The notes: generated by a model from the sequence alone, not told the origin. A DNA stretch of 31,479 bases from Candidatus Limnocylindrales bacterium (GCA_035559535.1 DATMBG010000007.1:62001-93479), one strand, 5' to 3'; counted from the first letter of the stretch, positions 4,748-31,371 are shown. Made by a program: numbers and translations.

Positions 4748-4755
4748 AGGGTAAG

Positions 4756-4785
4756 TTGTCAAGGGATCCCCTGAATCCTTGACAA
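4756..4785. repeat. Intergenic inverted repeat upstream of accD
   Basis: TTGTCAAGG ... CCTTGACAA, perfect 9-bp stem. Confidence 0.65.
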
Positions 4786-4804
4786 TGAACGGCTAACAAT
4801 TAGA

Positions 4805-5650: not shown

Positions 5651-5653
5651 AGT

Positions 5654-5719
5654 TTAGCCACAAAGACGCCCAGATACCTCTCTTAATGAGTCCGGAAGTC
5701 GGAGTATCTTTGTGGTTAA
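5654..5719 (+). repeat. Intergenic inverted repeat, accD/folC
   Basis: TTAGCCACAAAGA (5654-5666) / TCTTTGTGGTTAA (5707-5719). Confidence 0.75.
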
Positions 5720-5740
5720 TTATTTATTTTGAGTTCCTAC

Positions 5741-7066: not shown

Positions 7067-7067
7067 T

Positions 7068-7152
7068 ATCCTAAAGAACGCGAAGAATTTTATAAATCCC
7101 CCAGGAATAAAACATACAAAGAGTACTTGAGATTCTTCCTGTTCTTCGTGGT
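7068..7152 (+). repeat. Intergenic nonamer-type imperfect inverted repeat, folC/DUF1015
   Basis: CTAAAGAAC GCGAAGAAT ... ATTCTTCCT GTTCTTCGTGGT. Confidence 0.65.
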
Positions 7153-7158
7153 TAGAAA

Positions 7159-8487
7159 ATGGCAGAAATTTTACCCTTCAAAGGTATTCGTTACAATCTT
7201 AATAAAGTAGGCGATTTAGCCCTTGTGGTTTCTCCTCCTTACGATGTGATCTCACAGGAGGAACAAGAAAATTATTATAAGCTCCATCCCTATAATGTGA
7301 TTCGTTTAATTTTTGGAAAAGATCTTCCCGGGGATACAGAAGAAGAGAATAAGTATACCCGGGCGGCCAGATATTTTCAGGAATGGATGAATCAACGTAT
7401 CCTGGTGCAGGATGAGCAACCAGCTATCTATCTTTATCGCCAGGATTATCGCCTGCCTTATGAAGAAAAAGAGAAAAGCCTGACAGGTTTCATCGCTCTG
7501 GTTCACATAGATGAGGCTACCAGTAGTAATACGATTTACCCACACGAACATACCATGCCGGCTACGGTAGCCGATCGGTTAAATGTCGTCAAAGCTTGTA
7601 AAGCAGATTTATCTCCGTTGTTTGCCCTTTATTCAGATAGGGAAAGTCAGATCCGGAGTATTTTAGTTTCCGAAATGCAAGCTCAACCTATTCTCAAGTT
7701 GAAAGATCTGGAAGAAGTTCAACATCAGGTCTGGAGGATTCAAAATACCGAAAAGATTAAAGCAATCCAATCAAAAATAAGAAATAAAGCTCTGGTCATC
7801 GCCGATGGGCATCATCGGTACGAAGCAGCAAAATTATTCCGGGATTATATGTGGGCTTTGGATCCTCATCCTTCAGAGTTCAAACTGTATAATTACGTTA
7901 TGATGCAACTGGTAGCCATAGAGGATGAAGGATTGACTATTTTTCCCATTCACAGGCTGGTACGGGGTCTAAGTAACTTTAAAGAGGATCTGTTTTTAAA
8001 GCAGTTAGAGCAATTTTTTCATATCGATACCTTTAAACTTGACGAAAAAGAAAAAACTGCTAAAGTAAGCTTTATTCTTAATCGGTTGAGAATGGACTCT
8101 GAGCTTAGCCATCGGTTTTTTGTCTACAGTGGACAAAATAAAGTGTACGGCCTGACATTAAAAGACTTGAAAGCCTATGAGCAGATTGCCGATTTAACTC
8201 TACCCGAAGTTCTCAGAAATTTAGATGTAAGTATACTGCAGACGCTTATTTTTGATCATATTTTGGAAGGGAAAGAAAAACCTTTAGAGATCTCTTACAC
8301 AAGGGAAGAAGGAAAGGCTTTAGAGCTGATCGACACAGGGCAATATCAAATAGCATTTCTTTTAAGTCCCACGCGGGTATCTCAGGTGGTAGAAGTAGCA
8401 ACCCTGAGGAGACGGATGCCGCCTAAATCCACTTATTTTTACCCGAAACCTTTGACCGGAATCGTAATGAATAAAATATCCTGGTGA
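7159..8487 (+). CDS. DUF1015 family protein
   Basis: ILPFKGIRY, SPPYDVIS, PHEHT, IADGHHRY, MPPKSTYFYPK. Confidence 0.9.
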   Translation: MAEILPFKGIRYNLNKVGDLALVVSPPYDVISQEEQENYYKLHPYNVIRLIFGKDLPGDTEEENKYTRAARYFQEWMNQRILVQDEQPAIYLYRQDYRLPYEEKEKSLTGFIALVHIDEATSSNTIYPHEHTMPATVADRLNVVKACKADLSPLFALYSDRESQIRSILVSEMQAQPILKLKDLEEVQHQVWRIQNTEKIKAIQSKIRNKALVIADGHHRYEAAKLFRDYMWALDPHPSEFKLYNYVMMQLVAIEDEGLTIFPIHRLVRGLSNFKEDLFLKQLEQFFHIDTFKLDEKEKTAKVSFILNRLRMDSELSHRFFVYSGQNKVYGLTLKDLKAYEQIADLTLPEVLRNLDVSILQTLIFDHILEGKEKPLEISYTREEGKALELIDTGQYQIAFLLSPTRVSQVVEVATLRRRMPPKSTYFYPKPLTGIVMNKISW

Positions 8488-8527
8488 GAACCCTTTAGAG
8501 CAGGGAATGCTTCCTTCAGTTTAAGCT

Positions 8528-9451
8528 ATGGTTTCAGGTGGGCATGGTAGTTTAGATACCTGGCAAAGTTTGATCAAAGGAAAGGTTCTGTTCCGGGAGC
8601 CTTTAAGTAAGTATACGACTTTTCGAATAGGAGGACCGGCTGAGTGGATGGTTTTTCCTTTGGATCTCCAGGATGTGCAGACGGCGGTAGCGTATGCCCA
8701 CGATCAGGGTATGAAAATTTTTGTTCTGGGAGGCGGTTCCAATTTATTAGTGGCCGATGAAGGGATTCCGGGGGTTGTACTGAATCTGAGTAAGGGGTTT
8801 AATTATGCCCACTTCCAAGATACGCTGGTCATTGTTGGGGCCGGATATAGTCTTCCCCGGCTTGTCACCGAGGCTGTGAAGCGTGGGTTAACGGGATTGG
8901 AGTGTGCAACAGGAGTGCCGGGAACTGTGGGGGGCGCTGTGAGAATGAATGCAGGTACCCGAGAGGCTGGGATCGGAGATATTATCGTCCAATTAAAGCT
9001 CCTTCACAATAATGGAATCCTGAAGACTTTAGAACAAAAAGATTTAAAATTTCAGTACCGAGAATCCAACCTTCCCGCCGAGAGTATTATATTAGAAGTG
9101 GTACTGAATTTGAGAAAGGGAAATCAGAAGACCCTCCGGGAAGATATCCACAGACGTTTGATAAGTAGAAAAGCCACACAGCCGCTTTCATACCCCAATG
9201 CAGGCTCTATTTTTAAAAATCCTCCGGGGGAGTATGCCGGTCGTCTCATCGAAAAGGTGGGATTAAAAGGGACTCGCGTAGGTGATGCCGAGATTTCTTT
9301 GTTACATGGTAATTTTATTGTTAATAAAGGATCTGCAACTGCCAAAGATGTGATGGCTCTCATTCGAATGGCCAGACAAAAAGTCTGGAAAGAAACCGGA
9401 ATTAAGCTTGAACTGGAAGTTAAGTTATGGGGTTTAAACGAGGAAGGATAG
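8528..9451 (+). CDS. murB: UDP-N-acetylenolpyruvoylglucosamine reductase
   Basis: TTFRIGGPA, LGGGSNLLV, GVPGTVGGAVRMNAG, NAGSIFKNP, HGNFIVN, LELEV. Confidence 0.97.
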   Translation: MVSGGHGSLDTWQSLIKGKVLFREPLSKYTTFRIGGPAEWMVFPLDLQDVQTAVAYAHDQGMKIFVLGGGSNLLVADEGIPGVVLNLSKGFNYAHFQDTLVIVGAGYSLPRLVTEAVKRGLTGLECATGVPGTVGGAVRMNAGTREAGIGDIIVQLKLLHNNGILKTLEQKDLKFQYRESNLPAESIILEVVLNLRKGNQKTLREDIHRRLISRKATQPLSYPNAGSIFKNPPGEYAGRLIEKVGLKGTRVGDAEISLLHGNFIVNKGSATAKDVMALIRMARQKVWKETGIKLELEVKLWGLNEEG

Positions 9452-9509
9452 AAGATAGAGAACTGCGGTTCGATAGGTATCGACCTGTGATTCTCAGTCC
9501 TCGATCCTT
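9444..9509 (+). repeat. Heptamer-type hairpin spanning the murB/ftsQ junction
   Basis: AGGATAG AAGATAG AGAACTG CGGTTCGAT aggt ATCGACCTGTG ATTCTCAG TCCTCGA TCCT; ends 2 nt before the ftsQ GTG. Confidence 0.75.
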
Positions 9510-9511
9510 GT

Positions 9512-12813: not shown

Positions 12814-12821
12814 TTTAATCC

Positions 12822-12959: not shown

Positions 12960-12967
12960 TTTCTTAT

Positions 12968-16711: not shown

Positions 16712-16723
16712 ATTCAACCGAAT

Positions 16724-16772
16724 TCAGGAGTCAGAGTGATCTTTACAAACTTTCTGACTTCTGACTTCTGAC
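16724..16772 (-). repeat. Heptamer hairpin (TTCTGAC x3) at the rpsD/rplQ junction
   Basis: TCAGGAGTCAGA ... TTCTGAC TTCTGAC TTCTGAC. Confidence 0.8.
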
Positions 16773-16775
16773 CTT

Positions 16776-17419: not shown

Positions 17420-17495
17420 AATAGGCAATAGGTAACAGGCCCTAGATCGTGAATTGTCTTTTCCTACCCACGGTCTACGGCTTGCTACCCATTAC
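17420..17495 (-). repeat. Heptamer hairpin, rpsK/rpsD
   Basis: AATAGGC AATAGGT AACAGGC...; arms 17425-17453 / 17467-17495. Confidence 0.75.
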
Positions 17496-17889: not shown

Positions 17890-17900
17890 ACTTAGGGTAC

Positions 17901-17968
17901 TACGCAAAGCGTAATCTGTAGGGCTTTCTAGATCCTACTTTCTGAACTCATTCATTACGCCTTACGTA
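17901..17968 (-). repeat. Heptamer hairpin, rpsM/rpsK
   Basis: TACGCAAAGCGTAAT (17901-17915) / ATTACGCCTTACGTA (17954-17968). Confidence 0.8.
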
Positions 17969-17980
17969 TTCCATCTTCTA

Positions 17981-18364
17981 TTATTTCTTTTTGAGCTGTT
18001 TACGCTTACCTCCAATAGTTCGTCGGGGTCCTTTGCGGGTTCTTGCATTGGTACTCGTCCTCTGACCACGAACCGGAAGTCCTCGTCGGTGACGTAAACC
18101 TCGATAACAACCGATATCCATGAGGCGTTTTATATTCATAGCGACTTCCCTGCGTAAGTCCCCTTCTACTTTATATTTTTCATCGATTATTTTTCTCAGC
18201 GTAACGACTTCTTCGTCGCTTAACTCACCGACCTTTTTATTAAAATCAATTCCGGCTTCTTTTAAAATTTTTTGTGCAGAAGGACGACCGATCCCATAAA
18301 TATAGGTCAAACCGATTTCTACTCTTTTATTCTTCGGTAGATCAATCCCGGCTATGCGTGCCAA
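17981..18364 (-). CDS. rpsM: 30S ribosomal protein S13
   Basis: [29 protein letters not shown] start. Confidence 0.99.
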
Positions 18365-18387
18365 AGTTATAACCTCTCCTTAACTTT

Positions 18388-18448
18388 GGGGCTTGAGACT
18401 TGAGACTTGAGACCGGACGCCGGTCTCTGACCTCTGGCCTCTTGCCTC
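18388..18448 (-). repeat. Heptamer hairpin, rpmJ/rpsM
   Basis: TTGAGAC x3 CGG acg CCGGT CTCTGAC CTCTGGC CTCTTGC CTC. Confidence 0.85.
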
Positions 18449-18459
18449 TAAGAAATTTT

Positions 18460-18573
18460 TCACCCCTGTTTTTGTTTATGCCGAGGGTTCTCACAAATGA
18501 CCCTTACGACACCTTTTCGTTTGACAATCTTGCATTTATCACAGATTTTTTTTACGGAAGCTCGAACTTTCAT
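18460..18573 (-). CDS. rpmJ: 50S ribosomal protein L36, Zn-ribbon type (absent from the ORF track)
   Basis: Manual translation [37 protein letters not shown]. Confidence 0.99.
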
Positions 18574-18579
18574 AATCTG

Positions 18580-18710
18580 AAACCGTCTGGACACCAAGAA
18601 CGTCAAACAGTAAGCACTACCGTCAGATGGTTGCTTGAACTCTTTTTCTCCCCAGGTCTCTGGATCTGTTCCAGCCTTTGCCCCTGGCGTCCTTGGTGTC
18701 CAGACAGTTT
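18580..18710 (-). repeat. 26-bp inverted repeat, infA/rpmJ
   Basis: AAACCGTCTGGACACCAAGAACGTCA (18580-18605) / TGGCGTCCTTGGTGTCCAGACAGTTT (18685-18710). Confidence 0.9.
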
Positions 18711-18712
18711 AC

Positions 18713-18931
18713 CTATTTATGTCGATAAATAATTCGTCCCCGGGTTAAATCATAGGGAGAAAGTTCAACGGTCACTTTATCTCCAGGTAATATTCGAATA
18801 AAGTGTTTACGCATTTTACCCGAAATATGGGCTAAAACTTTATGTCCGTTATCCAGTTCAACCCGGAACATAGCGTTGGGGAGCGGTTCTACCACCGTCC
18901 CTTCCACCTGTATGGCTTCTTCTTTTGGCAT
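18713..18931 (-). CDS. infA: Translation initiation factor IF-1
   Basis: [27 protein letters not shown]. Confidence 0.99.
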
Positions 18932-19016
18932 AAATTTGTTTGCTTATCAAATCCTTTAAATAATATAAGATAGATCGAGATAACTACTGAATAGGGTGAT
19001 ATAGCAATATAATTTT

Positions 19017-19769
19017 TTAATCCAGATTCGTCAATATTTCAGGCCCATTTTCTGTAATCGCAATGGAATGTTCAAAGTGGGCGGATAAACTTCTATCTTG
19101 CGTGACAGCCGTCCATTTATCTTCTAATATTTCAACTTCTGGACCTCCCATGTTTACCATGGGCTCTATGGCCAATACCATCCCGACTCTCAGCCGTTCT
19201 CCTTTACCCGGTGTACCAAAATTAGGGACTTGAGGGTCTTCATGGAGTTTTCTACCTATTCCATGTCCTACAAAATCCCTTACCACCGAGAAGGAGTTCT
19301 TTTCGACGTGGGATTGAACGGCATAAGAAATATCTCCTAACCGATTCCCGGGGTAAGCCTGTTCAATCCCTTTGTAGAGGGCTTCCTGGGTGACTTGAAG
19401 AAGTCTCTCAGCCTCTGGAGAGATTCTTCCAACTGGAACTGTCAGAGCAGCATCTCCATAGTAATTATCAACAACCACGCCTACATCGAGACCTATAATA
19501 TCTCCCGATTTAAGTTTTCGAGAGGAAGGAATTCCATGGACCACCTGTTCATTAACCGACGTACAGATATAAGCTGGATAGTTTCGATACCCCTTAAAAG
19601 CCGATTTAGCCTTTCTTTTCTTCAGCCAGTCTTGGGCAAAGGCATCTAACTCCGCGGTCGTTATTCCCGGGGCAACTAATTTTATTAACTCTTTTAATAA
19701 TTCAGCAACAAGTCGGCAACTTACCTTAATTTTATTTATCTCTTCACGAGATTTTAAAATAACTCCCAT
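19017..19769 (-). CDS. map: Type I methionine aminopeptidase
   Basis: CTSVNEQVVHGIP, GHGIG, AIEPM, SAHFEHS. Confidence 0.98.
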   Translation of the reverse strand: MGVILKSREEINKIKVSCRLVAELLKELIKLVAPGITTAELDAFAQDWLKKRKAKSAFKGYRNYPAYICTSVNEQVVHGIPSSRKLKSGDIIGLDVGVVVDNYYGDAALTVPVGRISPEAERLLQVTQEALYKGIEQAYPGNRLGDISYAVQSHVEKNSFSVVRDFVGHGIGRKLHEDPQVPNFGTPGKGERLRVGMVLAIEPMVNMGGPEVEILEDKWTAVTQDRSLSAHFEHSIAITENGPEILTNLD

Positions 19770-19776
19770 TTTTCAA

Positions 19777-20442
19777 CTACCCTTCCTTTTTTATTTTTGA
19801 AAATATGGCATCCTGGATACTTTTGAAAACATCTTCTATGGTCCGTGCCCCTCCGTCTATGGAGATCAAGGCGCTTTTTTCCCAGTAATATTCTATCAAA
19901 GGTTTAGTCCGGGCGCGATAGACCTCCAACCGTTTCCTTACCGTTTCTTCCTTATCGTCCTCTCGCTGGTATAAAGGGCCTCCACACTTATCACAAACTC
20001 CTTCTTGTAGGGGAGGGTTAAAAATTACGTGAAAGGTTTCTCCACAATTCCGACATACCCTTCTGCCGGAGACTCTTTTGATAAGTTCTTCTTCCTGGAG
20101 ATAAATATTAATCACGGCATCTAGATAGAGACCTCTCTGCCTGAGAATCTCATCCAGAGCCACAGCTTGCCAGATAGTCCTCGGAAACCCATCCATCAGC
20201 CATCCTTTCTGGCAATCCACCTCTTGAAGCCGATCTTTAATGATACCGATCATAATTTCATCTGGAACCAGTTCTCCCTTTTCCAAATAAATTTGGGCTT
20301 TTTTTCCAAGAGGAGTCCCTTCTTTGACGGCTTGTCTTAAAATATCTCCGGTAGAGATTTGAGGTATGTTATAGGTTTTGGAAAATAATTTGGCCTGTGT
20401 CCCTTTACCGGCTCCCGGGGGGCCCATGAAAATTAGGTTCAT
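19777..20442 (-). CDS. adk: Adenylate kinase with Zn-binding LID
   Basis: GPPGAGKGTQA, STGDILR, DGFPRT, CRNC/CDKC. Confidence 0.99.
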   Translation of the reverse strand: MNLIFMGPPGAGKGTQAKLFSKTYNIPQISTGDILRQAVKEGTPLGKKAQIYLEKGELVPDEIMIGIIKDRLQEVDCQKGWLMDGFPRTIWQAVALDEILRQRGLYLDAVINIYLQEEELIKRVSGRRVCRNCGETFHVIFNPPLQEGVCDKCGGPLYQREDDKEETVRKRLEVYRARTKPLIEYYWEKSALISIDGGARTIEDVFKSIQDAIFSKIKKEG

Positions 20443-20449
20443 TTAACGG

Positions 20450-20539
20450 CCGCCCGCTGCCTATTGTTTAGTAAAGACGTTACCTATGACTTCTCTACAG
20501 ACAACGGACAACGGACAACAGACAATGGACCACGGATAG
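20450..20539 (-). repeat. Heptamer tandem array and G-U-rich complementary arm, secY/adk
   Basis: CAGACAA CGGACAA CGGACAA CAGACAA TGGACCA CGGATAG (20498-20539) versus CCGCCCG CTGCCTA TTGTTTA (20450-20470). Confidence 0.85.
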
Positions 20540-20544
20540 TCCTC

Positions 20545-21852
20545 CTACCTTCTTCCTCGAAGCCTTCCTTTTTTCATAAAACCTTCATAATGCCGAGTCA
20601 AGAGATGGGACTCGATTTGCTGTACGGTATCCAGGGCAACACCTACAACGATTAAAAGGGCCGTACCTCCAAAGAAGAAAGGAACATTCATGGTTGTTAT
20701 CAGAAGTTCAGGAAGTATGGCAATCAAGGCCAGGAAGATAGCTCCGGCTAAAGTAATTCGCGTAAGTACCGAATCAATATACAGGGCGGTTTTCTTTCCA
20801 GGTCGCACGCCTGGAATAAAACCTCCATACTTTTTCATATTATCTGCCAGATCGGTTGGATTAAAAATGATGGCCGTATAGAAGTAGCAGAAGAAAATGA
20901 TAAAGGCTGCATATAGAACGGTGTGGAGCATATGACCGGGAGATAGATTCTCTGCGATGGCCTGGGTCCAGGGATGTTTAATAAATCGAGCTATCGTTGC
21001 CGGAAATACAATGATGGACGAAGCAAAGATAACGGGAATAACGCCCGGGGTATTTACACGGAGAGGAATATGGGTATTCTGACCCCCGTAGATTTTTCTC
21101 CCAACGACGCGTTTGGCATATTGAACAGGTATTTTTCTTACCGCTTGTTGCATCACGACCACGGCTGCTACCACAAAAATGATAAGTACTAAAATTCCCA
21201 GGATAGAAAAAATTTTCATCTCTCCGATCTGGATCCGCTCGATCGTTAAGAATATTGCGGAAGGAAGTCTATCGACGATACCTGCAAAAATGATGAGCGA
21301 AATGCCATTTCCAATTCCCCGTTCCGTGATTTGTTCCCCAAGCCACATAAGGAATGCCGTACCGGCTGTGAGTGTAAGAACCGTTACGAACCGGAAGCTC
21401 CAACCAGGATAAGGAACCACAGGAGCTCCACCCTGGCTATGCATTCCTTCTAAACCAAAGCTGATTCCTAGGGCCTGGATAGCACTTAGAACCACCGTTC
21501 CATATCGGGTATACTGGGTGATCTTTTTCCTTCCCTGTTCACCTTCCTTAGCCAGCCTTTCCAAATAGGGTACAACTACCGTTAAAAGCTGAAGAATAAT
21601 AGAAGCACTGATATACGGCATAATCCCTAAAGCAAAGATTGTTAGCCTTCCCAGTGCTCCTCCCGAGAACATATCTACAAATCCTAAGATTGTATCTTTT
21701 TGCCTGGCAAAGAATTCACTTAAAGCCACCCCATCGATGCCCGGAGTTGGAATATGGGAGCCAATTCGATAAACGACCAAAAGAGCTAACGTAATTAAAA
21801 TCCTTCGCTTTAGCTCAGGTACTTTAAATATGTTTTGGACTACCTGTAACAA
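20545..21852 (-). CDS. secY: Preprotein translocase subunit SecY
   Basis: IFALGIMPYISASII, WLGEQITERGIGNGISLII, GFIPGVRPG, FGGTALLIVVGV; TTG 21852 with SD GAGGG. Confidence 0.99.
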   Translation of the reverse strand: MLQVVQNIFKVPELKRRILITLALLVVYRIGSHIPTPGIDGVALSEFFARQKDTILGFVDMFSGGALGRLTIFALGIMPYISASIILQLLTVVVPYLERLAKEGEQGRKKITQYTRYGTVVLSAIQALGISFGLEGMHSQGGAPVVPYPGWSFRFVTVLTLTAGTAFLMWLGEQITERGIGNGISLIIFAGIVDRLPSAIFLTIERIQIGEMKIFSILGILVLIIFVVAAVVVMQQAVRKIPVQYAKRVVGRKIYGGQNTHIPLRVNTPGVIPVIFASSIIVFPATIARFIKHPWTQAIAENLSPGHMLHTVLYAAFIIFFCYFYTAIIFNPTDLADNMKKYGGFIPGVRPGKKTALYIDSVLTRITLAGAIFLALIAILPELLITTMNVPFFFGGTALLIVVGVALDTVQQIESHLLTRHYEGFMKKGRLRGRR

Positions 21853-21873
21853 GGGGTATACCCTCTCTGTTGA

Positions 21874-21926
21874 ACAATGAACAACAACAATAAACAATTA
21901 ATTGTTTATTGTTAATTGTCCCTTGT
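21874..21926 (-). repeat. Heptamer (AACAAT-type) hairpin with a perfect 28-bp palindromic core over the rplO stop
   Basis: AACAATAAACAATT|AATTGTTTATTGTT at 21886-21913, with imperfect extension. Confidence 0.85.
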
Positions 21927-22374
21927 GATTGGTTAATTGAACTGCTTCTCCACCGGCTGTTTTAATTTTTTCTAAAGCAGACTTACTAAAAGCATGGGCC
22001 TGGATCGTCAACCGTTTGGTGAGATCCCCATCCCCGAGAATTTTAATCTCGTATTTATCATTTTTTATAAGACCGCGCTGGATTAACAGGTCTGGTGTGA
22101 TCACACTCCCTTCCTCAAAGACTTCATTTAAGCGACCGATGTTAATAATGCTATATACTTTCTTAAATATGTTGGTAAATCCCCGTTTAGGAATACGACG
22201 TTGCAGGGGCATTTGTCCGCCTTCAAATTGAGGTTTAAGTCTGCTACCTGAACGGGCTTTCTGTCCTTTATGTCCTCTGCCGGAAGTCTTGCCGTGTCCC
22301 GAGCCGGGGCCACGGCCTACCCGTTTTTTCTTTTTTCTAGAGCCCTTCGCGGGCTTTAACTCGTGTAACTTCAT
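21898..22374 (-). CDS. rplO: 50S ribosomal protein L15
   Basis: [37 protein letters not shown]. Confidence 0.98.
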
Positions 22375-22378
22375 GTAT

Positions 22379-22452
22379 TGAAAGAAAGGGTGAAGGGTAA
22401 AGGATGAAAAGCAACGTTTATTCATCCTTTAGCCTTCCGCCTTTAGCCTTCA
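22379..22452 (-). repeat. Heptamer hairpin, rpmD/rplO
   Basis: Minus strand GAAGGCT AAAGGCG GAAGGCT AAAGGAT GAA / TTCATCC TTTACCC TTCACCC TTTC. Confidence 0.85.
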
Positions 22453-22649
22453 GTGTCTGGAACCTCTTCAACTTTTAAAATTTTTATAAGATACATCACC
22501 TGTCTCAGCATCCCTCGGATTTCGGGAGTATCTTTGCGAACTACCACTTTATTGGTTTTCGTTAAGCCCAGGCCCCGAAGAGTTTCCCGATGTTTCCTGA
22601 TGGTGCCAATAGGGCTTTTAGCAAGTTTGATGGTAATCAGTCGTGCCAT
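22443..22649 (-). CDS. rpmD: 50S ribosomal protein L30
   Basis: IKLAKSPIG, TLRGLGL, DTPEIRGM; position after rpsE. Confidence 0.96.
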   Translation of the reverse strand: MARLITIKLAKSPIGTIRKHRETLRGLGLTKTNKVVVRKDTPEIRGMLRQVMYLIKILKVEEVPDTEG

Positions 22650-22651
22650 AA

Positions 22652-23170
22652 TTACGCCTCTACTTCTTTTTCTTCTCCTTGTTGAACAGGTTTAGTAGAT
22701 CTATATTCAGCCACCAACAAAGGATCTTTTAAGCTCTCCAAGGCTTTTATAGTGGCTTTCACAACATTATGAGGATTGGTAGAACCGATGGCCTTAGTCA
22801 AAATATCCTGGATACCGGCAGATTCTACCACAGCCCGAACAGCACCCCCTGCGATGACCCCGGTTCCTCGAGAAGCAGGTTTTAAAAATACCTGACTGGC
22901 TCCATATTTTCCGAGAACCTGATGAGGAATTGTCGCCCCTTTCAGGGGAATCTTTATCAGGTTTTTCTTGGCATTTTCTATACCCTTCCGGATTGCTTCG
23001 GGGACTTCATTGGCTTTTCCCAAACCATATCCCACATAACCATTACGGTTCCCTACTACTACCAAGGCGCTGAAGCTAAATCGCCTTCCCCCTTTTACCA
23101 CTTTCGCAACCCGACTGATATGAACCACCCTATCGGTTAACTCTAATTCTTTTACATCGATCCGCGCCAC
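22652..23170 (-). CDS. rpsE: 30S ribosomal protein S5
   Basis: [29 protein letters not shown]. Confidence 0.99.
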
Positions 23171-23190
23171 CTACATCTCCTTTCCCTACC

Positions 23191-23227
23191 CATGGAGTCC
23201 GAGAATTCTAAGAATTCTCGGGCCATG
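23191..23227 (-). repeat. Hairpin, rplR/rpsE
   Basis: CATGG..CCGAGAATTCT a AGAATTCTCGG.CCATG. Confidence 0.8.
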
Positions 23228-23233
23228 CAGGAA

Positions 23234-23599
23234 TTAAAACTGTAAACCACCTTCACGGGCTGCGGTAGCCAGTGCTTTAACCCGGCCATGAAATTTATAA
23301 CCGCCTCTATCAAAGACAACGGCTTTGATATTTTTTTCTAAAGCTTTTTGAGCCAGTATCCGGCCCAAAACCTTAGCAGCTTCAATATTACCGCCATTTT
23401 TAACACTTTCTTTAATTTCAGAACTTAAGGTCGAAAGACCCAGTAACGTATGACCCTTTTCATCATCGATAATTTGAGCATACATATTCCGAGCACTTCT
23501 AAAAACACTCAACCTGGGACGCTCTGAAGTTCCTTTTACTTTTTTTCTAACCCGCTTATGCCGTTTTTTTCTATGTTCCTCTTTAGTCAACTGTGGCAT
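23234..23599 (-). CDS. rplR: 50S ribosomal protein L18
   Basis: [30 protein letters not shown]. Confidence 0.98.
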
Positions 23600-23676
23600 G
23601 GTAAGTAAGAATAAGTCATAAGTAGCAAATAGCAAGGTAAAGAAAATGATTCACGACTTACTATTTACCACTTACC
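23600..23676 (-). repeat. Heptamer hairpin, rplF/rplR
   Basis: Minus strand GGTAAGT GGTAAAT AGTAAGT / CTTGCTA TTTGCTA CTTA...ACTTACC directly before the ATG. Confidence 0.8.
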
Positions 23677-23681
23677 GTTTT

Positions 23682-24218
23682 TTAAGCACCGGCTTTTCCA
23701 ACCTTACGGCGAATACGTTCACCTTCGTATCGAATTCCTTTACCTTTATAAGGTTCCGGTTTCTTAATATTCCGAATTTCTGCGGCTACCTGACCAACCT
23801 GTTGTTTATCAGCGCCTTTCACCAGTATCTTCGTATTATCTCGGACCTCAATGGTAACTCCATCTGGAATAGGGTAATTGACAGGATGGGAATACCCTAC
23901 ATTTAAAGTAAGTACTCTTCCTTCAACCTTTGCACGATAACCGATTCCCTCAATTTCTAACCCCTTACTAAATCCCTGGGTAACCCCGGTAACCATGTTG
24001 GCTATTAAGGTTCTGGATAATCCATGAAGAGAACGATAGCGTTTCTCATCAGATTCCCTTGTAACCAGGAGTTGCCCATTCTGATGGACTACCTTGATAC
24101 CGTTGGGGATTCGATATTCCAATTTACCCAGAGGTCCTTCTACCCTACAGAGGGAATCCTCTACTGTAACCTTAACATTTTTAGGCAACTCAATAGGCTT
24201 TTTACCGACTCTGGACAT
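23682..24218 (-). CDS. rplF: 50S ribosomal protein L6
   Basis: MSRVGKKPI, PEPYKGKGIRY. Confidence 0.99.
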   Translation of the reverse strand: MSRVGKKPIELPKNVKVTVEDSLCRVEGPLGKLEYRIPNGIKVVHQNGQLLVTRESDEKRYRSLHGLSRTLIANMVTGVTQGFSKGLEIEGIGYRAKVEGRVLTLNVGYSHPVNYPIPDGVTIEVRDNTKILVKGADKQQVGQVAAEIRNIKKPEPYKGKGIRYEGERIRRKVGKAGA

Positions 24219-24229
24219 GATTAACAATC

Positions 24230-24274
24230 AACCACAAGCCGTAAACTATTCAGCCTGGTTTATGGCTTGTGGTT
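24230..24274. repeat. Heptamer hairpin, rpsH/rplF
   Basis: AACCACAAGCCGTAAACT / GGTTTATGGCTTGTGGTT. Confidence 0.85.
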
Positions 24275-24297
24275 AATAATTCCCTGTTCGGTGAAGG

Positions 24298-24684
24298 CTA
24301 CCATACGTAGCATAGCACCTCGCCGCCAACTCCCATTAAGCGGGATTCTTTATCTGTCAAAATACCTTTAGAAGTAGAAAGGATGGCGATCCCTAACCCT
24401 CCCAGCACTCGAGGAATGGCATCTTTTCGTTTATAAACCCTGCACCCTGGTTTACTTACCCGTTGTAGATTTGTGATAACCCTTTTCCCCTCGGGAGTGT
24501 ATTTTAGATAAATTCGTAGAGCATTTCCAACCATTTTATATCCACGAATGAATCCTTCTCTCTTAAGCAATCTGGCTATTTCACCTTTTAATTTAGATGA
24601 GGGCACATCGGTATAAGGTTTATAGACCAGATTGGCGTTTCGGATTCGCGTTAACATATCGGCAATAGGATCTGTAGTGGCCAT
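24298..24684 (-). CDS. rpsH: 30S ribosomal protein S8
   Basis: [31 protein letters not shown]. Confidence 0.99.
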
Positions 24685-24696
24685 CTTAACCCATCG

Positions 24697-24754
24697 AGAA
24701 GCCAGAGGCAAGAAGCAACAGGGTTCCCTTTCTTACCTCTTGCCTTTTGCTTCT
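24697..24754 (-). repeat. Heptamer hairpin, rpsN/rpsH
   Basis: AGAAGCC AGAGGCA AGAAGCA A / TTACCTC TTGCCTT TTGCTTC T. Confidence 0.85.
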
Positions 24755-24938
24755 ACCAGCTCGCTTTGATAACCCCAGGTATCTCTCCCTTTGAGGCCAG
24801 GGTTCTGAAACAAATACGACACATTTTAAACTTTCGGATATAACCCCGAGGTCTGCCGCATATCAGGCAGCGATTCCTCTGTCTTGAACTAAATTTTGGT
24901 TTCTTTTTGGCTTTTGCAATAGATGCTGTTCTTGCCAC
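24753..24938 (-). CDS. rpsN: 30S ribosomal protein S14, Zn-binding type Z
   Basis: [10 protein letters not shown]...MCRICFR...[11 protein letters not shown]. Confidence 0.99.
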
Positions 24939-24961
24939 AGTATTTTCCCTAAATCTTAGGA

Positions 24962-25021
24962 GCTAAGGGGCCTAAAGGGTCTAAAGTTAAAGGAAACTTT
25001 AGACCCCTTAGATCTCTTAGC
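24962..25021 (-). repeat. Nonamer hairpin, rplE/rpsN
   Basis: CTAAGGGGC CTAAAGGGT CTAAAGTT / AACTTTAG ACCCCTTAG ATCTCTTAG. Confidence 0.88.
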
Positions 25022-25043
25022 CTGTTAGACACCTCTTATTTAT

Positions 25044-25586
25044 TTATTGCCTGAAGGGCATACCCAGCTCTGCGAGAAGAGCTTTTCCCTCTTCATCGGT
25101 TTTAGCCGTCGTAACAATGGCTACATTAAGTCCCCTGATTTTATCCACTTTATCGTAATTTATTTCAGGAAATATAATTTGTTCCCGAAGACCCAAGGTG
25201 TAATTTCCTCTTCCATCGAAGGATTTGGGAGAAACTCCTTTGAAATCTCTAACCCGGGGAAGAGCTACATTCACCAATCTATCCAGAAACTCATACATAC
25301 GCTGCTTGCGTAAGGTTACCATACATCCGATGGGCATACCGGCCCTTAGCTTAAAACTGGCTATGGACTTTTTAGCCCGTCTTATGACCGGTTTCTGACC
25401 GGTAATAGCCGCTAACTCCTCTGCCGCAGCATCCAGAACTTTAATATCTGAAACCGCTTCTCCCAACCCCATGTTTACCACAATTTTTTCTAATCTGGGT
25501 ACCTGCATCACGTTTTTATATCCAAATTGCTTCATCAAATTTGGAATTACAACTTCCCGATATTTTCTTTCCAATCGTGATTTCAT
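25044..25586 (-). CDS. rplE: 50S ribosomal protein L5
   Basis: [33 protein letters not shown]. Confidence 0.99.
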
Positions 25587-25597
25587 GAAAGTCAATG

Positions 25598-25648
25598 GTA
25601 GGGCGAGACGTTATTCCCCTTTCGGGGTAAAGCACCCTTCTGCCCTAC
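25598..25648 (-). repeat. GTAG-type hairpin with tetraloop, rplX/rplE
   Basis: GTAGGGC...GCCCTAC enclosing CCCC-GAAA-GGGG on the minus strand. Confidence 0.7.
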
Positions 25649-25974
25649 TTATCAATAATCTCTCCACACTTCTTGCATGTTCTGACATTACGGCCGTCTT
25701 CTAATCGGGTTTTCCCAATACGGGTAGGTTTTTTACAATTTGGGCAATTGAGCATTACATTGGAGACGTGAATACCTCCTTCCATCTCCACAATACCACC
25801 CCCTTGCCCCTGTGCTCTTTTTTTAAGGTGCTTTTTAATCAGGTTAACTTTTTCCACAATCACTTTTCCTTTTTTAGGGATCGTTCTTAAAATCTTACCC
25901 GTTTTACCTTTTTCTTTTCCGGCAATAACAGTAACCGTATCTCCTTTTCTGACATGAAATTTGATCCTAGGCAT
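25645..25974 (-). CDS. rplX: 50S ribosomal protein L24
   Basis: KOW motif [25 protein letters not shown]; start is ATG 25974 or GTG 25980. Confidence 0.98.
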
Positions 25975-25982
25975 AACCACCT

Positions 25983-26055
25983 GTATGGGTGTATAGGGTG
26001 TGGGTCTGTGGAAAGTAAGGTATAGATAGTTTTTCTCACGCCCATACGCCCATAC
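25983..26055. repeat. Octamer hairpin, rplN/rplX
   Basis: GTATGGGT GTATAGGG TGTGGG / CTCACG CCCATACG CCCATAC. Confidence 0.85.
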
Positions 26056-26062
26056 TTCTCTT

Positions 26063-26431
26063 TTAAATGACTTCCGGAGCCAGGGACAATATTTTGGTAA
26101 ATTCTTTATCCCGGAGTTCTCGGGCTACCGGACCAAAGATTCTGGTTCCCATGGGTTCATTTTGGGGGGTTAAGAGTACTGCCGCATTTTTATCAAACTT
26201 AATATAAGATCCATCTTTCCTTCTCATTTCTTTAGCTACCCGGACAACGACCGCCTTCACCACGTCACCTTTTTTTACAGAACCCCCTGGAGAAGCCTCT
26301 TTAACAGCGGCCATAATCACATCTCCGACATATCCATATTTCTTATTTGAACTTTCCATAATCCGAATGCACATAATCTCTTTGGCTCCGGAATTATCTG
26401 CAACTTCAAGTCTTGTCTGTGGTTGTATCAT
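26063..26431 (-). CDS. rplN: 50S ribosomal protein L14
   Basis: [37 protein letters not shown]. Confidence 0.99.
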
Positions 26432-26711
26432 CTCCTTCACCCTCCTGTTCCGTTAATTGAGCTTTCTTTAGAATTTTAACTACGCGCCACCGTTTCTCTT
26501 TACTGAGTGGCCTCGTCTCCCATATCTCAACAATATCTCCTATGGAGCATTTATTCTCCTCATCATGGGCTTTAAACTTTTTCGATCTTTTGATCGTTTT
26601 ATTATATCTGGGGTGTTGAATAAATCTAGTCACCTCAACGACCACCGTCTTCATCATTTTATTACTGACCACAACTCCCTGTCTTACCTTCCTTCTCCCT
26701 GGTTTTTCCAT
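26406..26711 (-). CDS. rpsQ: 30S ribosomal protein S17
   Basis: [30 protein letters not shown]. Confidence 0.98.
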
Positions 26712-26729
26712 CTTTGGAAGAGCTTAGCA

Positions 26730-26806
26730 TACTTAAAGTGAGCTAAAAGGTTTTTTTACTTTAGTTCACTTTAAGCAGTTTCGACCCTTAAAAACTTCAG
26801 GCACTT
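26730..26806 (-). repeat. Nonamer-type hairpin, rpmC/rpsQ
   Basis: TACTTAAAGTGAGCTAAAA (26730-26748) / CTTTAGTTCACTTTAAGCA (26759-26777), plus an extra ACTTCAGGCAC unit. Confidence 0.85.
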
Positions 26807-26816
26807 AAAAGACCCT

Positions 26817-27035
26817 TTAGGCCTTTCCCCTGGTCTCTTTCTCCGCCGCCAGCTCCCTTTCCCGAATAATGGTCAACACTCTTGCAAGATCCCGTCGAAC
26901 GTTTCTGATAATTTGTGGATTTTCAGCCTGATTGGTTGCAATCTGAAATCTCAAATTAAAGAGTTCTTCTCGTAAGTCCCTTTCCCGTTCTTTTAGTTCT
27001 TCGTCCGTTAATTCTCTCAGTTCTCGCGCTTTCAC
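26817..27035 (-). CDS. rpmC: 50S ribosomal protein L29
   Basis: [25 protein letters not shown]. Confidence 0.98.
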
Positions 27036-27049
27036 CGCTTACTCCTTTC

Positions 27050-27454
27050 TTACCGTACCACAAATTTGGTTTTAATAGGAAGCTTGTGGGCAGCTAGGCG
27101 TAGAGCATCTCTGGCGAGTTCTTCAGGAATGCCATCCATCTCATAAATGATACGACCAGGCTTAACCACAGCTACCCAATGATCCAGAGCTCCTTTTCCT
27201 TTACCCATTCGAGTTTCCGTAGGCTTCGAGGTGACAGGTTTATCTGGAAAAATACGTATCCACATTCTTCCACTTCTTTTTACTTTTCGTGTGATAGCAA
27301 TACGGGCTGCTTCGATCTGGCGATCTGTAATATAACCGGGTTCTAAAGCCTGCAGACCAAATTGACCAAAATTAAGCGTAGAACCTCGATAAGCTTTACC
27401 CTTCATCCTTCCCCGTTGTTGCTTTCGATATTTTACCTTTTTAGGCATTAACAT
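27050..27454 (-). CDS. rplP: 50S ribosomal protein L16
   Basis: [24 protein letters not shown]. Confidence 0.99.
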
Positions 27455-27499
27455 AGCTAAGACTCCTTTGAAGTTTTCAGGTTAAGCTATTTACCAACC

Positions 27500-28228
27500 C
27501 TAAACCTTAGCGGGTTGTTGAAGAGTTTTTTGACCGGACTGACTTTGTTGACCGGACTGACCTTGTTGAACCTGTTGATTTTGTTCCTTGGACTGATTAT
27601 TCCTCGAAAGAACTTCTCCTTTAAAAATCCAAACCTTGACCCCTATCAATCCATAAGTGGTCAGGGCTTGTGAAAAACCATAATCGATATCAGCCCGTAA
27701 AGTATGTAGAGGAACTCTCCCCTCTCGATACCATTCGGTTCTGGCCATTTCCGAACCATCTAACCGACCACTACAGGAAACCTTGATGCCATAAGCCCCC
27801 AAGCGCATAGCCGACGATACACTTCTTTTCATGGCACGGCGAAACGAAACTCTTCTTTCCAGTTGAAGAGCTATATTTTCAGCCACTAATTGAGCATCAA
27901 GCTCTGCTCTTCTAACTTCATAGATATTGACCTGGATTTGTTTACCGGTAAGGGCTTGCAGACTTTTCTTCAATTTATCGACCTCTGCACCTTTCCGACC
28001 GATGATAATTCCGGGGCGTGCAGTATGAATATTTACGGTAGTCTTCTCAGCAGCCCGCTCGATTTCAACTTTAGAAATCCCGGCATGGGATAATTTGTCT
28101 TTGACAAAATTTCGGATTTTCAAGTCTTCATGGAGCAGATCTGCATAATTCTTCTCCGCATACCATTTAGAGTTCCAAGTCTTAATAATTCCTAATCTTA
28201 AACCTATTGGATTAACTTTTTGTCCCAA
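27500..28228 (-). CDS. rpsC: 30S ribosomal protein S3
   Basis: [30 protein letters not shown] start with GGAGGT. Confidence 0.99.
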
Positions 28229-28244
28229 GCATTACCTCCCTCCT

Positions 28245-28302
28245 TGTTGATTGTTGATCGTCCATTAGATTTTAGTCCCTCCTGGACGATCGACAATGAA
28301 CA
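28245..28302. repeat. Heptamer hairpin, rplV/rpsC
   Basis: TGTTGAT TGTTGAT CGTCCA / TGGACGA TCGACAA TGAACA. Confidence 0.8.
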
Positions 28303-28306
28303 CTAA

Positions 28307-28648
28307 TTATTCCTTTGGTTTTTCATCTAAAATAATGGTAATATGGCTGGATCTCTTTCGAATTGGCGTTGCACGCCCCATAGCCCTTGGTAAATACCTT
28401 CGCTGGGTTGGGCCATCATCTGCAAAAGCCTGACTAATGTAGAGGGCATCCACGTCGGCTTCAGAATTTTCTTCTGCGTTAGCAATAGCCGAGCGTAAAA
28501 TTTTAGCAATGGTACGAGCAACCGCTTTCGGGGAATATTCCAGGATATTCAGGGCTTCTTCTACCGGTTTACCCCGGATGAGATCGATGACGAGTCTGGC
28601 TTTTTGAGGTGAAACCCGAATGTATCGTCCTACGGCTTTGGCTACCAC
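28307..28648 (-). CDS. rplV: 50S ribosomal protein L22
   Basis: [30 protein letters not shown]. Confidence 0.99.
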
Positions 28649-28656
28649 ATCTGTTT

Positions 28657-28735
28657 AAGTGTTCTAAAGTGAGCTAGACGGTTTAAAGTTTTTATGGCTT
28701 GTCATTTCAGGTTTTCTAGCTCACTTCAGGCACCC
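28657..28735 (-). repeat. Nonamer-type hairpin, rpsS/rplV
   Basis: AAGTGTTCTAAAGTGAGCTAGA / TCTAGCTCACTTCAGGCACCC. Confidence 0.85.
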
Positions 28736-28739
28736 TAGC

Positions 28740-29045
28740 TTATTTTTCTGTCCTTTCTCCGGCTTTCTTTACCGTGGTTGTTTTCTCACTTTTCCCGTGT
28801 CCTCGATAGGTTCTGGTGGGTGCAAACTCACCCAGTTTATGTCCCACCATATTTTCGGTTATAAACACCGGAATAAACTTTTTACCGTTATGAACGGCAA
28901 AATAATGACCTACGAATTCAGGAATAATGGTAGAACGCCGGGACCAGGTCCGAATGGGCTTTCTTTCCCCGGTTTGAGCCATTTTTCTTACTTTTCTCAA
29001 CAGGCTTTCATCTACGAAAGGACCTTTCTTAACTGAACGGGGCAT
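28740..29045 (-). CDS. rpsS: 30S ribosomal protein S19
   Basis: [31 protein letters not shown]. Confidence 0.99.
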
Positions 29046-29052
29046 ATTTTCA

Positions 29053-29103
29053 GAAGATAGAAGTCAGAAGCCAGGGATTTTCTGACTTCTGACTTTTATC
29101 TTC
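29053..29103 (-). repeat. Heptamer hairpin (TCAGAAG), rplB/rpsS
   Basis: 22-bp arms GAAGATAGAAGTCAGAAGCCAG / CTGACTTCTGACTTTTATCTTC. Confidence 0.88.
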
Positions 29104-29104
29104 C

Positions 29105-29926
29105 TTATTTACGGCGCTTTATAATTAATTTATCAGAAGGTTTTTTCTTTCGAGTTTTATAGCCTTTAGTCGGCATACCCCAAGGACTGACCGGATGTCG
29201 ACCTCCAGAAGTTTTTCCTTCTCCTCCCCCCATGGGATGGTCTACAGGATTCATGGCCACTCCCCGAACACGGGGTCGCCTTCCCAACCATCTGGATCTG
29301 CCGGCTTTTCCAATGCTAATGTTTTCATGTTCTATATTACCTACGGTTCCGATAGTTGCCGAACAATCCAGATGAATAAGTCGAATCTCGCCTGAAGGAA
29401 GCTTTACCTGGGCATAATCTCCTTCCTTGGCCATAATCTGAGCACTATTTCCGGCACTCCTAACCAGTTGTCCGCCTCTACCTTTTTTGAGTTCGATATT
29501 ATGGATATCCGTTCCCACGGGGATGTTCCTTAAAGGAAGGCAATTACCCACTTTGATATCTGCCTCCGGTCCGGCCACCACCGTATCTCCTACCTTCAGC
29601 CCTAAGGGAGCCAGGATATATCTCTTTTCTCCGTCCAGGTAATGGAGTAAAGCAATTCTGGCAGATCTATTGGGATCGTATTCAATGGCCGCTACTTTCG
29701 CCGGAATAGCAATTTTATCTCGCTTAAAATCGATGATTCGATAAAAACGTTTATGACCTCCACCCCGATGACGACTGGTAATTCTTCCGGCGTTATTTCT
29801 TCCTCCCGTTTTTTTAAGCGGCTTAATTAATTTCTTTTCAGGCTCTGTCTTGGTAATCTCTTCAAACGTATAACCGGTCCGAAATCTTATACCCGGTGAG
29901 GTCGGTTTATATGTTTTAATACCCAT
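29105..29926 (-). CDS. rplB: 50S ribosomal protein L2
   Basis: [30 protein letters not shown]. Confidence 0.99.
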
Positions 29927-29929
29927 CGC

Positions 29930-29995
29930 AGGAAGTCAGAAGTCAGAAGTTAAGATCGTTTTCTCCAGACTTCTGACTTCTGATCTCTGACTCCT
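29930..29995 (-). repeat. Heptamer hairpin (TCAGAAG), rplW/rplB
   Basis: AGGAAG TCAGAAG TCAGAAGT / ACTTCTG ACTTCTG ATCTCTG ACTCCT. Confidence 0.88.
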
Positions 29996-29999
29996 AGTC

Positions 30000-30916: not shown

Positions 30917-30930
30917 CGGTACTCCTGCAG

Positions 30931-30985
30931 AAGAGTGTGGGCATATGGCAACAGAATGATCCTGTTGCCATATGCCCACACTCTT
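30931..30985. repeat. Perfect 24-bp inverted repeat, rpsJ/rplD
   Basis: AAGAGTGTGGGCATATGGCAACAG aatgatc CTGTTGCCATATGCCCACACTCTT. Confidence 0.95.
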
Positions 30986-31300: not shown

Positions 31301-31371
31301 GAAATCAGGAGGCAGTTTTCAGGAGTCCGTTTAAATAAATTTTCTTTCTCCTGAATCTTTTCTCCTGACTC
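31301..31371 (-). repeat. Heptamer-type hairpin (TCAGGAG), tuf/rpsJ
   Basis: GAAATCAGGAG..TCAGGAG / CTCCTGA..CTCCTGACTC, 14-nt period. Confidence 0.8.

Follow-up and report, generated by a model that had tools for sequence, protein, structure and literature searches.

Heptamer repeats occur widely in intergenic DNA, and no function has been established for them. In the sections of Rehm et al. [quoted passage not shown] MacGregor (2015; PMC4679880, cited for selected passages) describes TAACTGA direct repeats just upstream of gene starts in marine Beggiatoaceae, in a genome that makes little use of the Shine–Dalgarno (SD) sequence; SDs occur in about 10% of repeat-bearing spacers against 25% genome-wide, ribosomal-protein operons included, and a translational role was proposed there but left untested. 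Here we analyse a stretch of 31,479 nt (the window; Candidatus Limnocylindrales bacterium, GCA_035559535.1, contig C7:62001–93479 of a 5.6-Mb genome bin in 58 contigs, hereafter G000), in which an essential, highly expressed operon, the S10–spc–alpha ribosomal-protein cluster, is saturated with hairpins made of short repeats, and in which many of the genes directly behind these hairpins start without an SD. Given that the arms show a periodicity of 7–8 nt, the hairpins are a new, very dense instance of the unexplained class that Rehm (2015) and MacGregor (2015) describe. As to their nature, we think it probable that they are genome-wide, lineage-specific intergenic palindromes grown from 7–8-nt repeats rather than carriers of a distal SD.

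The likeness to the Xanthomonas and Nostoc heptamers, as far as the cited sections of PMC4692102 go, extends to the 7-nt unit, the genome-wide dispersal, the bias towards non-coding DNA (770 intergenic against 130 coding loci), the preference for aligned over divergent neighbours (18–26% of co-oriented spacers against 2 of 61 divergent ones), the nearness to stops and starts, and the occurrence of inverted pairs. In contrast to those heptamers, many different units are found here, none of them of the G-rich GGGNATC type, almost all stand as inverted pairs in long stems, and none contains a G-quadruplex motif (as judged from the units; G-quadruplex formation was not examined); translation starts, in turn, are not treated in those sections of PMC4692102, and the word 'Shine' does not occur in that paper. 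With the repeats in the cited passages of PMC4679880, the present ones share heptamer arrays a few nucleotides before starts (here a median of 11 nt from the 3′ foot of the stem to the start), the rarity of SDs behind them (49/454 against 321/1013 without a stem), a low-SD genome and residence in ribosomal-protein operons, but unlike the direct, largely unstructured arrays of the single unit TAACTGA they are inverted, diverse in unit and folded into stems of −15 to −60 kcal/mol. Open-access word searches found no paper on operon-wide replacement of SDs by repeat hairpins, nor one on such hairpins in Moduliflexota (the putative phylum of the bin). The repetitive extragenic palindromes (REPs) and bacterial interspersed mosaic elements (BIMEs) of enterobacteria are intergenic, transcribed hairpins between co-oriented or convergent genes and are proposed stabilisers of mRNA; REPs follow a family consensus and are accompanied by a REP-associated tyrosine transposase (RAYT). 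The hairpins described here are likewise intergenic and transcribed but, unlike REP/BIME, the 21 in the operon have no consensus in common.

The cluster occupies the minus strand from 31294 to 16310, in the order rpsJ, rplD, rplW, rplB, rpsS, rplV, rpsC, rplP, rpmC, rpsQ, rplN, rplX, rplE, rpsN, rpsH, rplF, rplR, rpsE, rpmD, rplO, secY, adk, map, infA, rpmJ, rpsM, rpsK, rpsD, rplQ. Genes were named by NCBIfam, and starts were set from profile alignments and N-terminal sequences; because several mechanical ORFs run upstream into the hairpins (at rplD, rplR, rplO, secY, rpmJ and rpsK), the longest ORF is not to be equated with the gene. A 16S gene was not found in G000, and as anti-SD we used GAUCACCUCCUUU, the 3′ end of 16S in G001, a genome of the same genus; its 16S terminus (GGATCACCTCCTTT) carries the canonical anti-SD. 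Within the operon, the SD score is that of the best duplex which any 8-mer of the 25 nt preceding a start forms with the anti-SD (in kcal/mol). Junctions of at least 40 nt (n = 24) were folded together with their stop and start codons, and 21 of them form one dominant top-level stem-loop of −15.3 to −60.5 kcal/mol, the others being those before rplP (−4.6), secY (−4.8) and infA (−10.0 kcal/mol). A preliminary description of the window, made from its sequence, had the stems running from stop to start, which the folds bear out: the 5′ foot follows the stop at a distance of −3 to 25 nt (−3 to 12 nt in 16/21), and in 15/21 a distance of −2 to 12 nt separates the 3′ foot from the start.

Behind these hairpins, 15 genes start without an SD, that is, the 11 that the preliminary description had named (rplB, rpsS, rplV, rpsQ, rplE, rplF, rplR, rplO, adk, rpmJ and rpsK), for each of which the duplex scores agree, and also rpsJ, rpsN, rpsH and rplQ. 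There is effectively no SD at rplB (−0.7), rpsS (−0.9), rplV (−0.8), rpsQ (0.0), rplE (−1.0), rplR (−0.6), rplO (−0.3) and rpsK (+0.1), and at rpsJ, rpsN, rpsH, rplF, adk, rpmJ and rplQ it is weak or buried in the stem (−3.6 to −6.3 kcal/mol), the best words of rplF (−5.4), adk (−5.8) and rpmJ (−6.3) lying inside it. By comparison, SDs are present at short or overlapping junctions (rplW, rpmC, rplN, rpmD and map; −5.8 to −10.8 kcal/mol), and the hairpin-free junctions singled out earlier do carry them (rpmC −8.1, rplP −8.1, rplN −10.8 and map −6.5). The counter-examples also hold, with SDs at rplD (−6.9), rpsC (−11.3), rpsE (−8.6), secY (−6.5), rpsM (−8.2) and rpsD (−9.5). Six genes have 14–25 nt between 3′ foot and start, of which rplD, rpsC, rplX, rpsM and rpsD keep an SD and rplR has none.

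The bin as a whole extends this pattern, and with it the earlier observation is confirmed. Our own gene caller (hexamer log-odds) gave 4392 genes, with 84% of the genome coding, and a robust set of 1916 genes was defined by a start-score margin of at least 4. Genome-wide, an SD was counted when it scored −7 kcal/mol or stronger within −21..−3; by this measure 31% of all genes and, in the robust set, 35% of starts have one, compared with 12% (12.3%) of internal coding positions, so that the genome is a low-SD one in which the SD is optional and SD-less starts are the majority. Among co-oriented genes, SDs precede 321/1013 starts without a stem (164/427 in the robust set) and 256/729 starts behind a gap of less than 25 nt (139/368), as against 49/454 (21/245) where a stem ends at most 15 nt before the start; where the stem ends 16–40 nt before it, the count is 60/187 (26/82). 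Pooling all stems that end within 40 nt gives 109/641, about half of the stem-free rate. SD-less starts are thus commoner behind hairpins than without them (SD in 9–11% with a start-adjacent stem against 32–38% with no stem), as the preliminary description had required of its idea. The rate falls to 13/235 for gap-filling hairpins, against 16/91 where the 5′ foot lies more than 15 nt from the stop, and the depletion is absent from divergent spacers, in which start-adjacent stems leave SDs in 24/67. Starts beside hairpins have an A-rich context at −6 to −2 that is common to the other SD-less starts of the genome, and no motif peculiar to them was found.

In their anatomy, the hairpins are opposed arrays of short tandem units (in the operon GTCAGAA, used three times, GTCCGTT, TCAAGTC, GTATGGGC and GGTAAGT-like units). 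Across 612 stems in co-oriented spacers of at most 200 nt, periods 7 and 8 give the 5′ arm its highest self-match (0.397 and 0.366, respectively), as opposed to 0.27–0.31 at periods 4–6 and 9–11. The purine-rich arm comes first in 71% of these stems, a property that is identical on both strands and therefore gives the hairpins no orientation relative to transcription. In the median, they span 70 nt, begin 6 nt after the stop, end 11 nt before the start and leave 20 nt of spacer outside the stem. A strand-neutral search for inverted repeats returned 931 loci, 770 of them intergenic, 130 coding and 31 mixed despite the predominance of coding DNA; one is held by 18–26% of co-oriented spacers of 80–200 nt, by 30% of convergent spacers of the same length and by 2/61 divergent spacers of 40–200 nt. 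As this search detects about half of the operon hairpins, every 5′ region was folded too: of 3591 gene starts, 32% have an unbranched stem of −20 kcal/mol or below upstream, compared with 9% of 400 shuffles. Hairpin frequency rises weakly with codon adaptation, from 30% to 46–48%, and is then 40% in the top bin. Intrinsic terminators were considered and rejected: 23 terminator-like sites stand against 17 ± 4.4 in shuffles (both strands), no U tract or T enrichment follows the stems, and among the operon hairpins only that between rplB and rpsS passes a lax terminator rule. The window has no match to Rfam families at gathering thresholds.

Which state came first can be read from relatives. We compared nine species of the same phylum, G000 and G001 belonging to one genus and the remaining seven to a sister family; cluster genes were located in each genome by tblastn and every junction was folded. 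In the sister family, rplV follows a gap of 32–37 nt with GAGGAG or AGGAG (−7.3 to −8.8) and no stem, rpsQ has the conserved SD GAAGGGGG (−10.4 to −10.7), rpsN follows a gap of 21–27 nt with an SD of −9 to −11, and rpsH has an SD of −8.2 to −9.4 in 5/7 genomes (−6.4 in G003 and −4.0 in G002). The SD is lacking at all four junctions in G000, where a hairpin of −22 to −40 kcal/mol stands instead, and G001 has a hairpin and no SD at rplV, the only one of the four on its examined contig. Across the seven ribosomal clusters of the sister family, which as kin are not independent, SDs accompany 92/124 junctions without a stem and 6/35 of those with one next to the start, and in five outgroup genomes from other phyla the cluster has short gaps and, for the most part, SDs. 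Since sister family and outgroups alike mostly have short gaps with SDs, the sequence comparison shows the loss of SDs together with the gain of hairpins to be a derived state in this genus. The junctions before rplD, rplB and rpsS, by comparison, have a stem-loop in 9/9 genomes, and the repeat units at such shared junctions differ between genera (at rplB, GTCAGAA, GACGATT and TTGACAA). Turnover is also seen at closer range, as a metagenome contig (run X7, 40.8 kb, 93% identical) substitutes 79 nt of different sequence for 65 nt at the rplV–rpsC hairpin. The G001 assembly breaks at that same hairpin (28240–28306), and short contigs of two other metagenome runs tend to end near hairpins.

The strand-stability, pair-fate and divergence tests gave no sign of selection on the structure of the sense RNA. 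Hairpins chosen by Watson–Crick pairing only are more stable on the sense strand in 208 cases and on the antisense strand in 205, that is, equally. In RNA, a G.U pair is harmless in the sense strand, and an A.C mismatch there is harmless only to the antisense strand. Of the pairs that are Watson–Crick in either G000 or G001 (21 junctions), 79 became G.U and 66 became A.C (p = 0.32). The operons of the two genomes are 93% identical and differ at 14.7% of third codon positions, 15.7% of unpaired spacer positions and 8.3% of stem positions; the last value is not taken as selection, because the comparison censors changes that break a pair on the reference lineage, and about 7.5% would be expected from a single neutral lineage. 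To estimate what a terminating ribosome could do, we used a model set in advance, in which a 30S subunit needs −15..+13 open and a ribosome terminating upstream holds stop−15..stop+9 open. The modelled cost of opening the start region has a median of 10.9 kcal/mol for 99 genes with gap-filling hairpins, against 8.4 for 115 SD-less and 8.1 kcal/mol for 80 SD-bearing stem-free controls (p about 2 × 10⁻⁵ for the hairpin difference). With a ribosome parked on the upstream stop, the hairpin genes come to 8.3 kcal/mol, indistinguishable from stem-free genes (p = 0.97); the median gain is 2.2 kcal/mol for them against 0.3 and 0.0 for the controls.

Three other explanations were weighed against that of lineage-specific palindromes, and one of them fails on the removal tests. 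Bridged ribosome-binding sites are known from phage T4 (gene 38 and gene 25 type), and the preliminary description had seen SD-like words at the upstream foot of stems, which would be brought beside the start codon by the fold. The words are there literally (TAAGGA, TAGGT, AGGAG and AGGGA) and lie near several feet, but they are no commoner than at shifted positions, and they are either in overlap with stop codons or base-paired within the stem. Each hairpin was deleted from foot to foot and the SD rescored, with shifted cuts as controls. Exact removal yields an SD in 52/347 cases genome-wide (15.0%) and cuts with the 5′ edge 3–50 nt further upstream in 40–55/347 (11.5–15.9%), the coding control being 12.3%; in the operon, exact removal recovers an SD at 1/14 SD-less hairpin junctions against 0–4/14 for shifted cuts. 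Only cuts that spare some of the purine-rich 5′ arm raise the rate, to 18–23%, which is why we assign the extra SD-like words to that arm, inside the stem and paired. The sole operon junction at which removal gives a near-SD is that of rplB, where the AGGAG foot word is at 29990 and the deletion puts UAGGAGUC (−6.8 kcal/mol) 7 nt before the ATG. As a general rule the split site is refuted, and we regard it as highly improbable as an account of these hairpins. A second explanation, that the hairpins are operon-wide translational couplers which functionally replace the SD, we hold to be unlikely, although it stays compatible with the modelling as a live minority reading in its form of coupling by unfolding. 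Here the base of the stem would overlap the landing zone of the downstream 30S subunit and start within reach of the ribosome on the upstream stop; termination would melt the base and set the ribosome beside the start, and the downstream cistron would therefore be translated only after the upstream one. This corresponds to RNA-unfolding models, re-initiation models or both, and resembles a shunt across a hairpin. In the cited parts of the review PMC12548453, RNA-unfolding coupling is described for genes VII–IX of phage f1 and for rpmI–rplT of Escherichia coli, and its unfolding model comes with hairpins and with spacings of +52 to +62 nt. The geometry is alike in that a structure covers the downstream start, can be opened by the upstream ribosome and spans tens of nucleotides (here a raised opening cost in the model, and a stem a median of 6 nt past the stop, within reach of the upstream ribosome), but those cases are single, gene-specific and experimentally proven, as opposed to hundreds of repeat hairpins and a modelled effect of about 2 kcal/mol. 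In favour of coupling are the fall in opening cost from 10.9 to 8.3 kcal/mol, the rarity of SDs where both feet hug stop and start, their retention behind start-adjacent stems in divergent spacers (that is, where upstream translation is lacking), and the derived nature of SD loss in essential ribosomal-protein genes. Against it, the effect is small and model-dependent, with footprint sizes of our own choosing, and a library screen in the cited parts of PMC12548453 found that structure just past the stop lowered coupling; moreover, folds are equally stable on both strands, the G.U bias is not significant, stem divergence is about that of one neutral lineage, and 65% of genes start without an SD anyway. 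The structure-mediated coupling or re-initiation put forward in the preliminary description thus fails in so far as a foot SD was to act across the stem, whereas coupling as such is compatible with the SD rarity behind gap-filling hairpins, the divergent spacers and the opening model. Somewhat more doubtful to us is the fuller proposal that repeat hairpins took over the role of the SD within operons, joining stop and start, opening only at termination and passing ribosomes across gaps of 50–130 nt; if true, bacteria would have here their own equivalent of hairpin shunting or termination–reinitiation, by which stoichiometry would be set for at least 13 ribosomal proteins and, across the genome, for about 235 gene pairs.

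At the opposite end, the hairpins could be purely DNA-level by-products without any RNA or translational role, arising by slippage, template-switch expansion or as a mobile cassette and persisting where harmless, which we consider improbable. The strand symmetry of stability, the near-neutral divergence with no G.U bias, the different units at the same junction in different genera and the replacement of one hairpin in a 93%-identical strain all point this way, as does the genome's only S23p gene, whose flanking inverted arrays look like a filled version of such a cassette; on the other side stand the strong depletion in short divergent spacers, the tight hugging of stop codons, the hairpins at rplD, rplB and rpsS in 9/9 genomes, and the weak rise with codon adaptation (30% to 46–48%). 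The reading that we favour is that of lineage-specific intergenic palindromes. The repeat anatomy, the genome-wide association with SD-less starts, the failure of the bridged SD and, from the comparison of relatives, the derived loss of SDs are established by the results above; the following scenario is what we suggest on top of them. Palindromes, each consisting of two opposed arrays of 7–8-nt tandem repeats with many different units, would have accumulated to about 600–900 copies in transcribed spacers behind genes, between co-oriented and convergent neighbours, avoiding coding sequence and short divergent promoter spacers and tending to take up the space between stop and start. Where a gene stands directly behind a hairpin, it would start without an SD because the pyrimidine-rich 3′ arm fills the SD window, and such starts would be tolerated because only about a third of the genome's genes use an SD at all. 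In this genus the hairpins probably spread through the ribosomal-protein cluster, where SDs kept in the sister family were lost. Initiation at hairpin-preceded cistrons would then be SD-independent, probably helped a little, as the opening model suggests, by the terminating upstream ribosome melting the base of the stem, and at the RNA level the stems may act as barriers to 3′ exonucleases or as RNase III sites. Several points weigh against this scenario. The hairpins at the rplD, rplB and rpsS junctions persist in 9/9 genomes despite complete turnover of sequence, which could mean that the structure itself is selected and which passive tolerance leaves unexplained. That essential, highly expressed genes lost strong SDs suggests that something compensates. 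The SD depletion beside stems is partly geometric, given that the 3′ arm occupies the place of the SD and leaves no room for one. Finally, the gene caller placed starts correctly for 21/29 ribosomal-protein genes of the window and ab initio tuning never exceeded 22/29, for which reason the high-margin subset was used, and that subset is itself correct for 10/10 genes as checked on the window only.

One system offers a lead on RNA processing. The cited parts of PMC4990558 describe an intervening sequence of 23S rRNA that contains an S23p ORF, has a 28-bp terminal stem and variable tandem heptamers, and is cleaved by RNase III in the stem. The sole S23p (PF05635) gene of G000 (C36:151024–151437) lies between two protein genes (locus 150960–151500) and, flanked by inverted GTGTGGG(G/A) arrays, resembles one of the hairpins with a gene inside. 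The hairpins resemble the intervening sequence of PMC4990558 in their long, near-perfect inverted-repeat stems with tandem heptamers, but differ from the S23p cassette in that those of the operon have loops of 3–40 nt without an ORF and sit in mRNA spacers rather than in rRNA. Because an S23p gene sits between such inverted arrays, we find it reasonable, by analogy, that the gene-less hairpins may be processed by RNase III.

What the locus adds to the heptamer-repeat literature is a clean before-and-after comparison, in which strong SDs of essential genes were given up where hairpins moved in. It raises the questions of how, in the absence of an SD, ribosomes start 2–12 nt past stems of −25 to −60 kcal/mol, and of whether such hairpins couple neighbouring cistrons. 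It also carries a warning for annotation, as ORFs in such genomes enter the hairpins and start calling based on SDs puts starts in the wrong place.

Taken individually, all on the minus strand, the hairpins before SD-less starts begin with that between tuf and rpsJ (31302..31371; −23.2 kcal/mol), which has TCAGGAG and CTCCTGA arms and lies 3 nt past the stop and 7 nt before the ATG at 31294. GTCAGAA repeats form those of rplW–rplB (29929..29996; −30.1 kcal/mol), rplB–rpsS (29052..29104; −30.8 kcal/mol, reaching from the stop to 6 nt before the ATG) and rpsD–rplQ (16720..16768; −15.3 kcal/mol). Between rpsS and rplV, which starts with GTG at 28648, the stem is at 28657..28735 (−25.6 kcal/mol), and the structured spacer between rpmC and rpsQ (26710..26795; −22.6 kcal/mol) has arms with CTTAAAGTGA. 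The rplX–rplE hairpin (25599..25647; −19.1 kcal/mol) includes the stop codon in its stem; that of rplE–rpsN (24937..25025; −39.5 kcal/mol) consists of TCTAAGG/TCTAAAG repeats, with only a weak AGGGA for rpsN. Next come those of rpsN–rpsH (24697..24754; −29.5 kcal/mol), rpsH–rplF (24227..24277; −23.9 kcal/mol), rplF–rplR (23618..23675; −24.2 kcal/mol, with GGTAAGT-type repeats) and rpmD–rplO (22385..22444; −26.7 kcal/mol). The secY–adk hairpin (20449..20519; −31.3 kcal/mol) is made of GTCCGTT repeats and has AGGAGGA at the secY stop, about 90 nt before the ATG of adk; a long branched hairpin (18580..18710; −60.5 kcal/mol) separates infA from rpmJ, which has no free SD, and the rpsM–rpsK hairpin lies at 17896..17972 (−24.1 kcal/mol).

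An SD follows the remaining stems. That of rpsJ–rplD (30931..30985) is a perfect 26-bp stem of −46.3 kcal/mol with AGGAG and a GTG start at 30916 behind it, that of rplV–rpsC (28245..28302; −24.7 kcal/mol) is followed by GGAGGGAGG and a TTG at 28228, and that of rplN–rplX (25991..26055; −19.1 kcal/mol), made of GTATGGGC repeats, is followed by AGGUGG 2 nt before the ATG at 25974. The rplR–rpsE hairpin (23183..23233; −24.6 kcal/mol) precedes AAGGAG, the rpmJ–rpsM hairpin (18390..18446; −28.9 kcal/mol), of GAGGCMA and TCAAGTC repeats, precedes TAAGGAGAGG and the rpsK–rpsD hairpin (17425..17495; −37.5 kcal/mol) precedes GGAGGAAGGAG. On the plus strand of the window, stems stand in a cell-division and cell-wall cluster (4748..9511) before the starts at 4805, 5741 and 9512 (−15.4, −26.0 and −17.9 kcal/mol, with SD scores of −1.7, −2.2 and −4.1). 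The spacer 12814–13728, after a gene ending at 12813, holds a composite structure of about 150 nt with GGTAAAAAG and CTTTTTACC-type arms, which is of the same repeat class on the plus strand and outside the ribosomal cluster.

The gene content of the cluster shows some peculiarities. Between rpsJ and rplD (30916–31294), rplC (L3) is missing in 9/9 of the compared genomes of the phylum, the gap of 63–69 nt being filled by a hairpin; the L3 of G000 is encoded on a separate contig (C13:9680–10291). Likewise, rpoA is absent between rpsD and rplQ in G000 (16711–16776), where there is a 64-nt spacer with the GTCAGAA hairpin; the sister family has about 1.2 kb at this place, and the rpoA of G000 is found at C17:3055–3954. 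The genes adk and map lie between secY and infA in G000 and not in the sister family. A C-terminal extension of rpsQ overlaps the start of rplN by 26 nt (26406–26431), and the SD of rplN (GGAGGGTGAAGGAG) lies inside the rpsQ coding sequence. The S3 protein (rpsC) has a glutamine-rich, low-complexity tail of about 30 residues past the end of the bacterial S3 profile (27500–27620).

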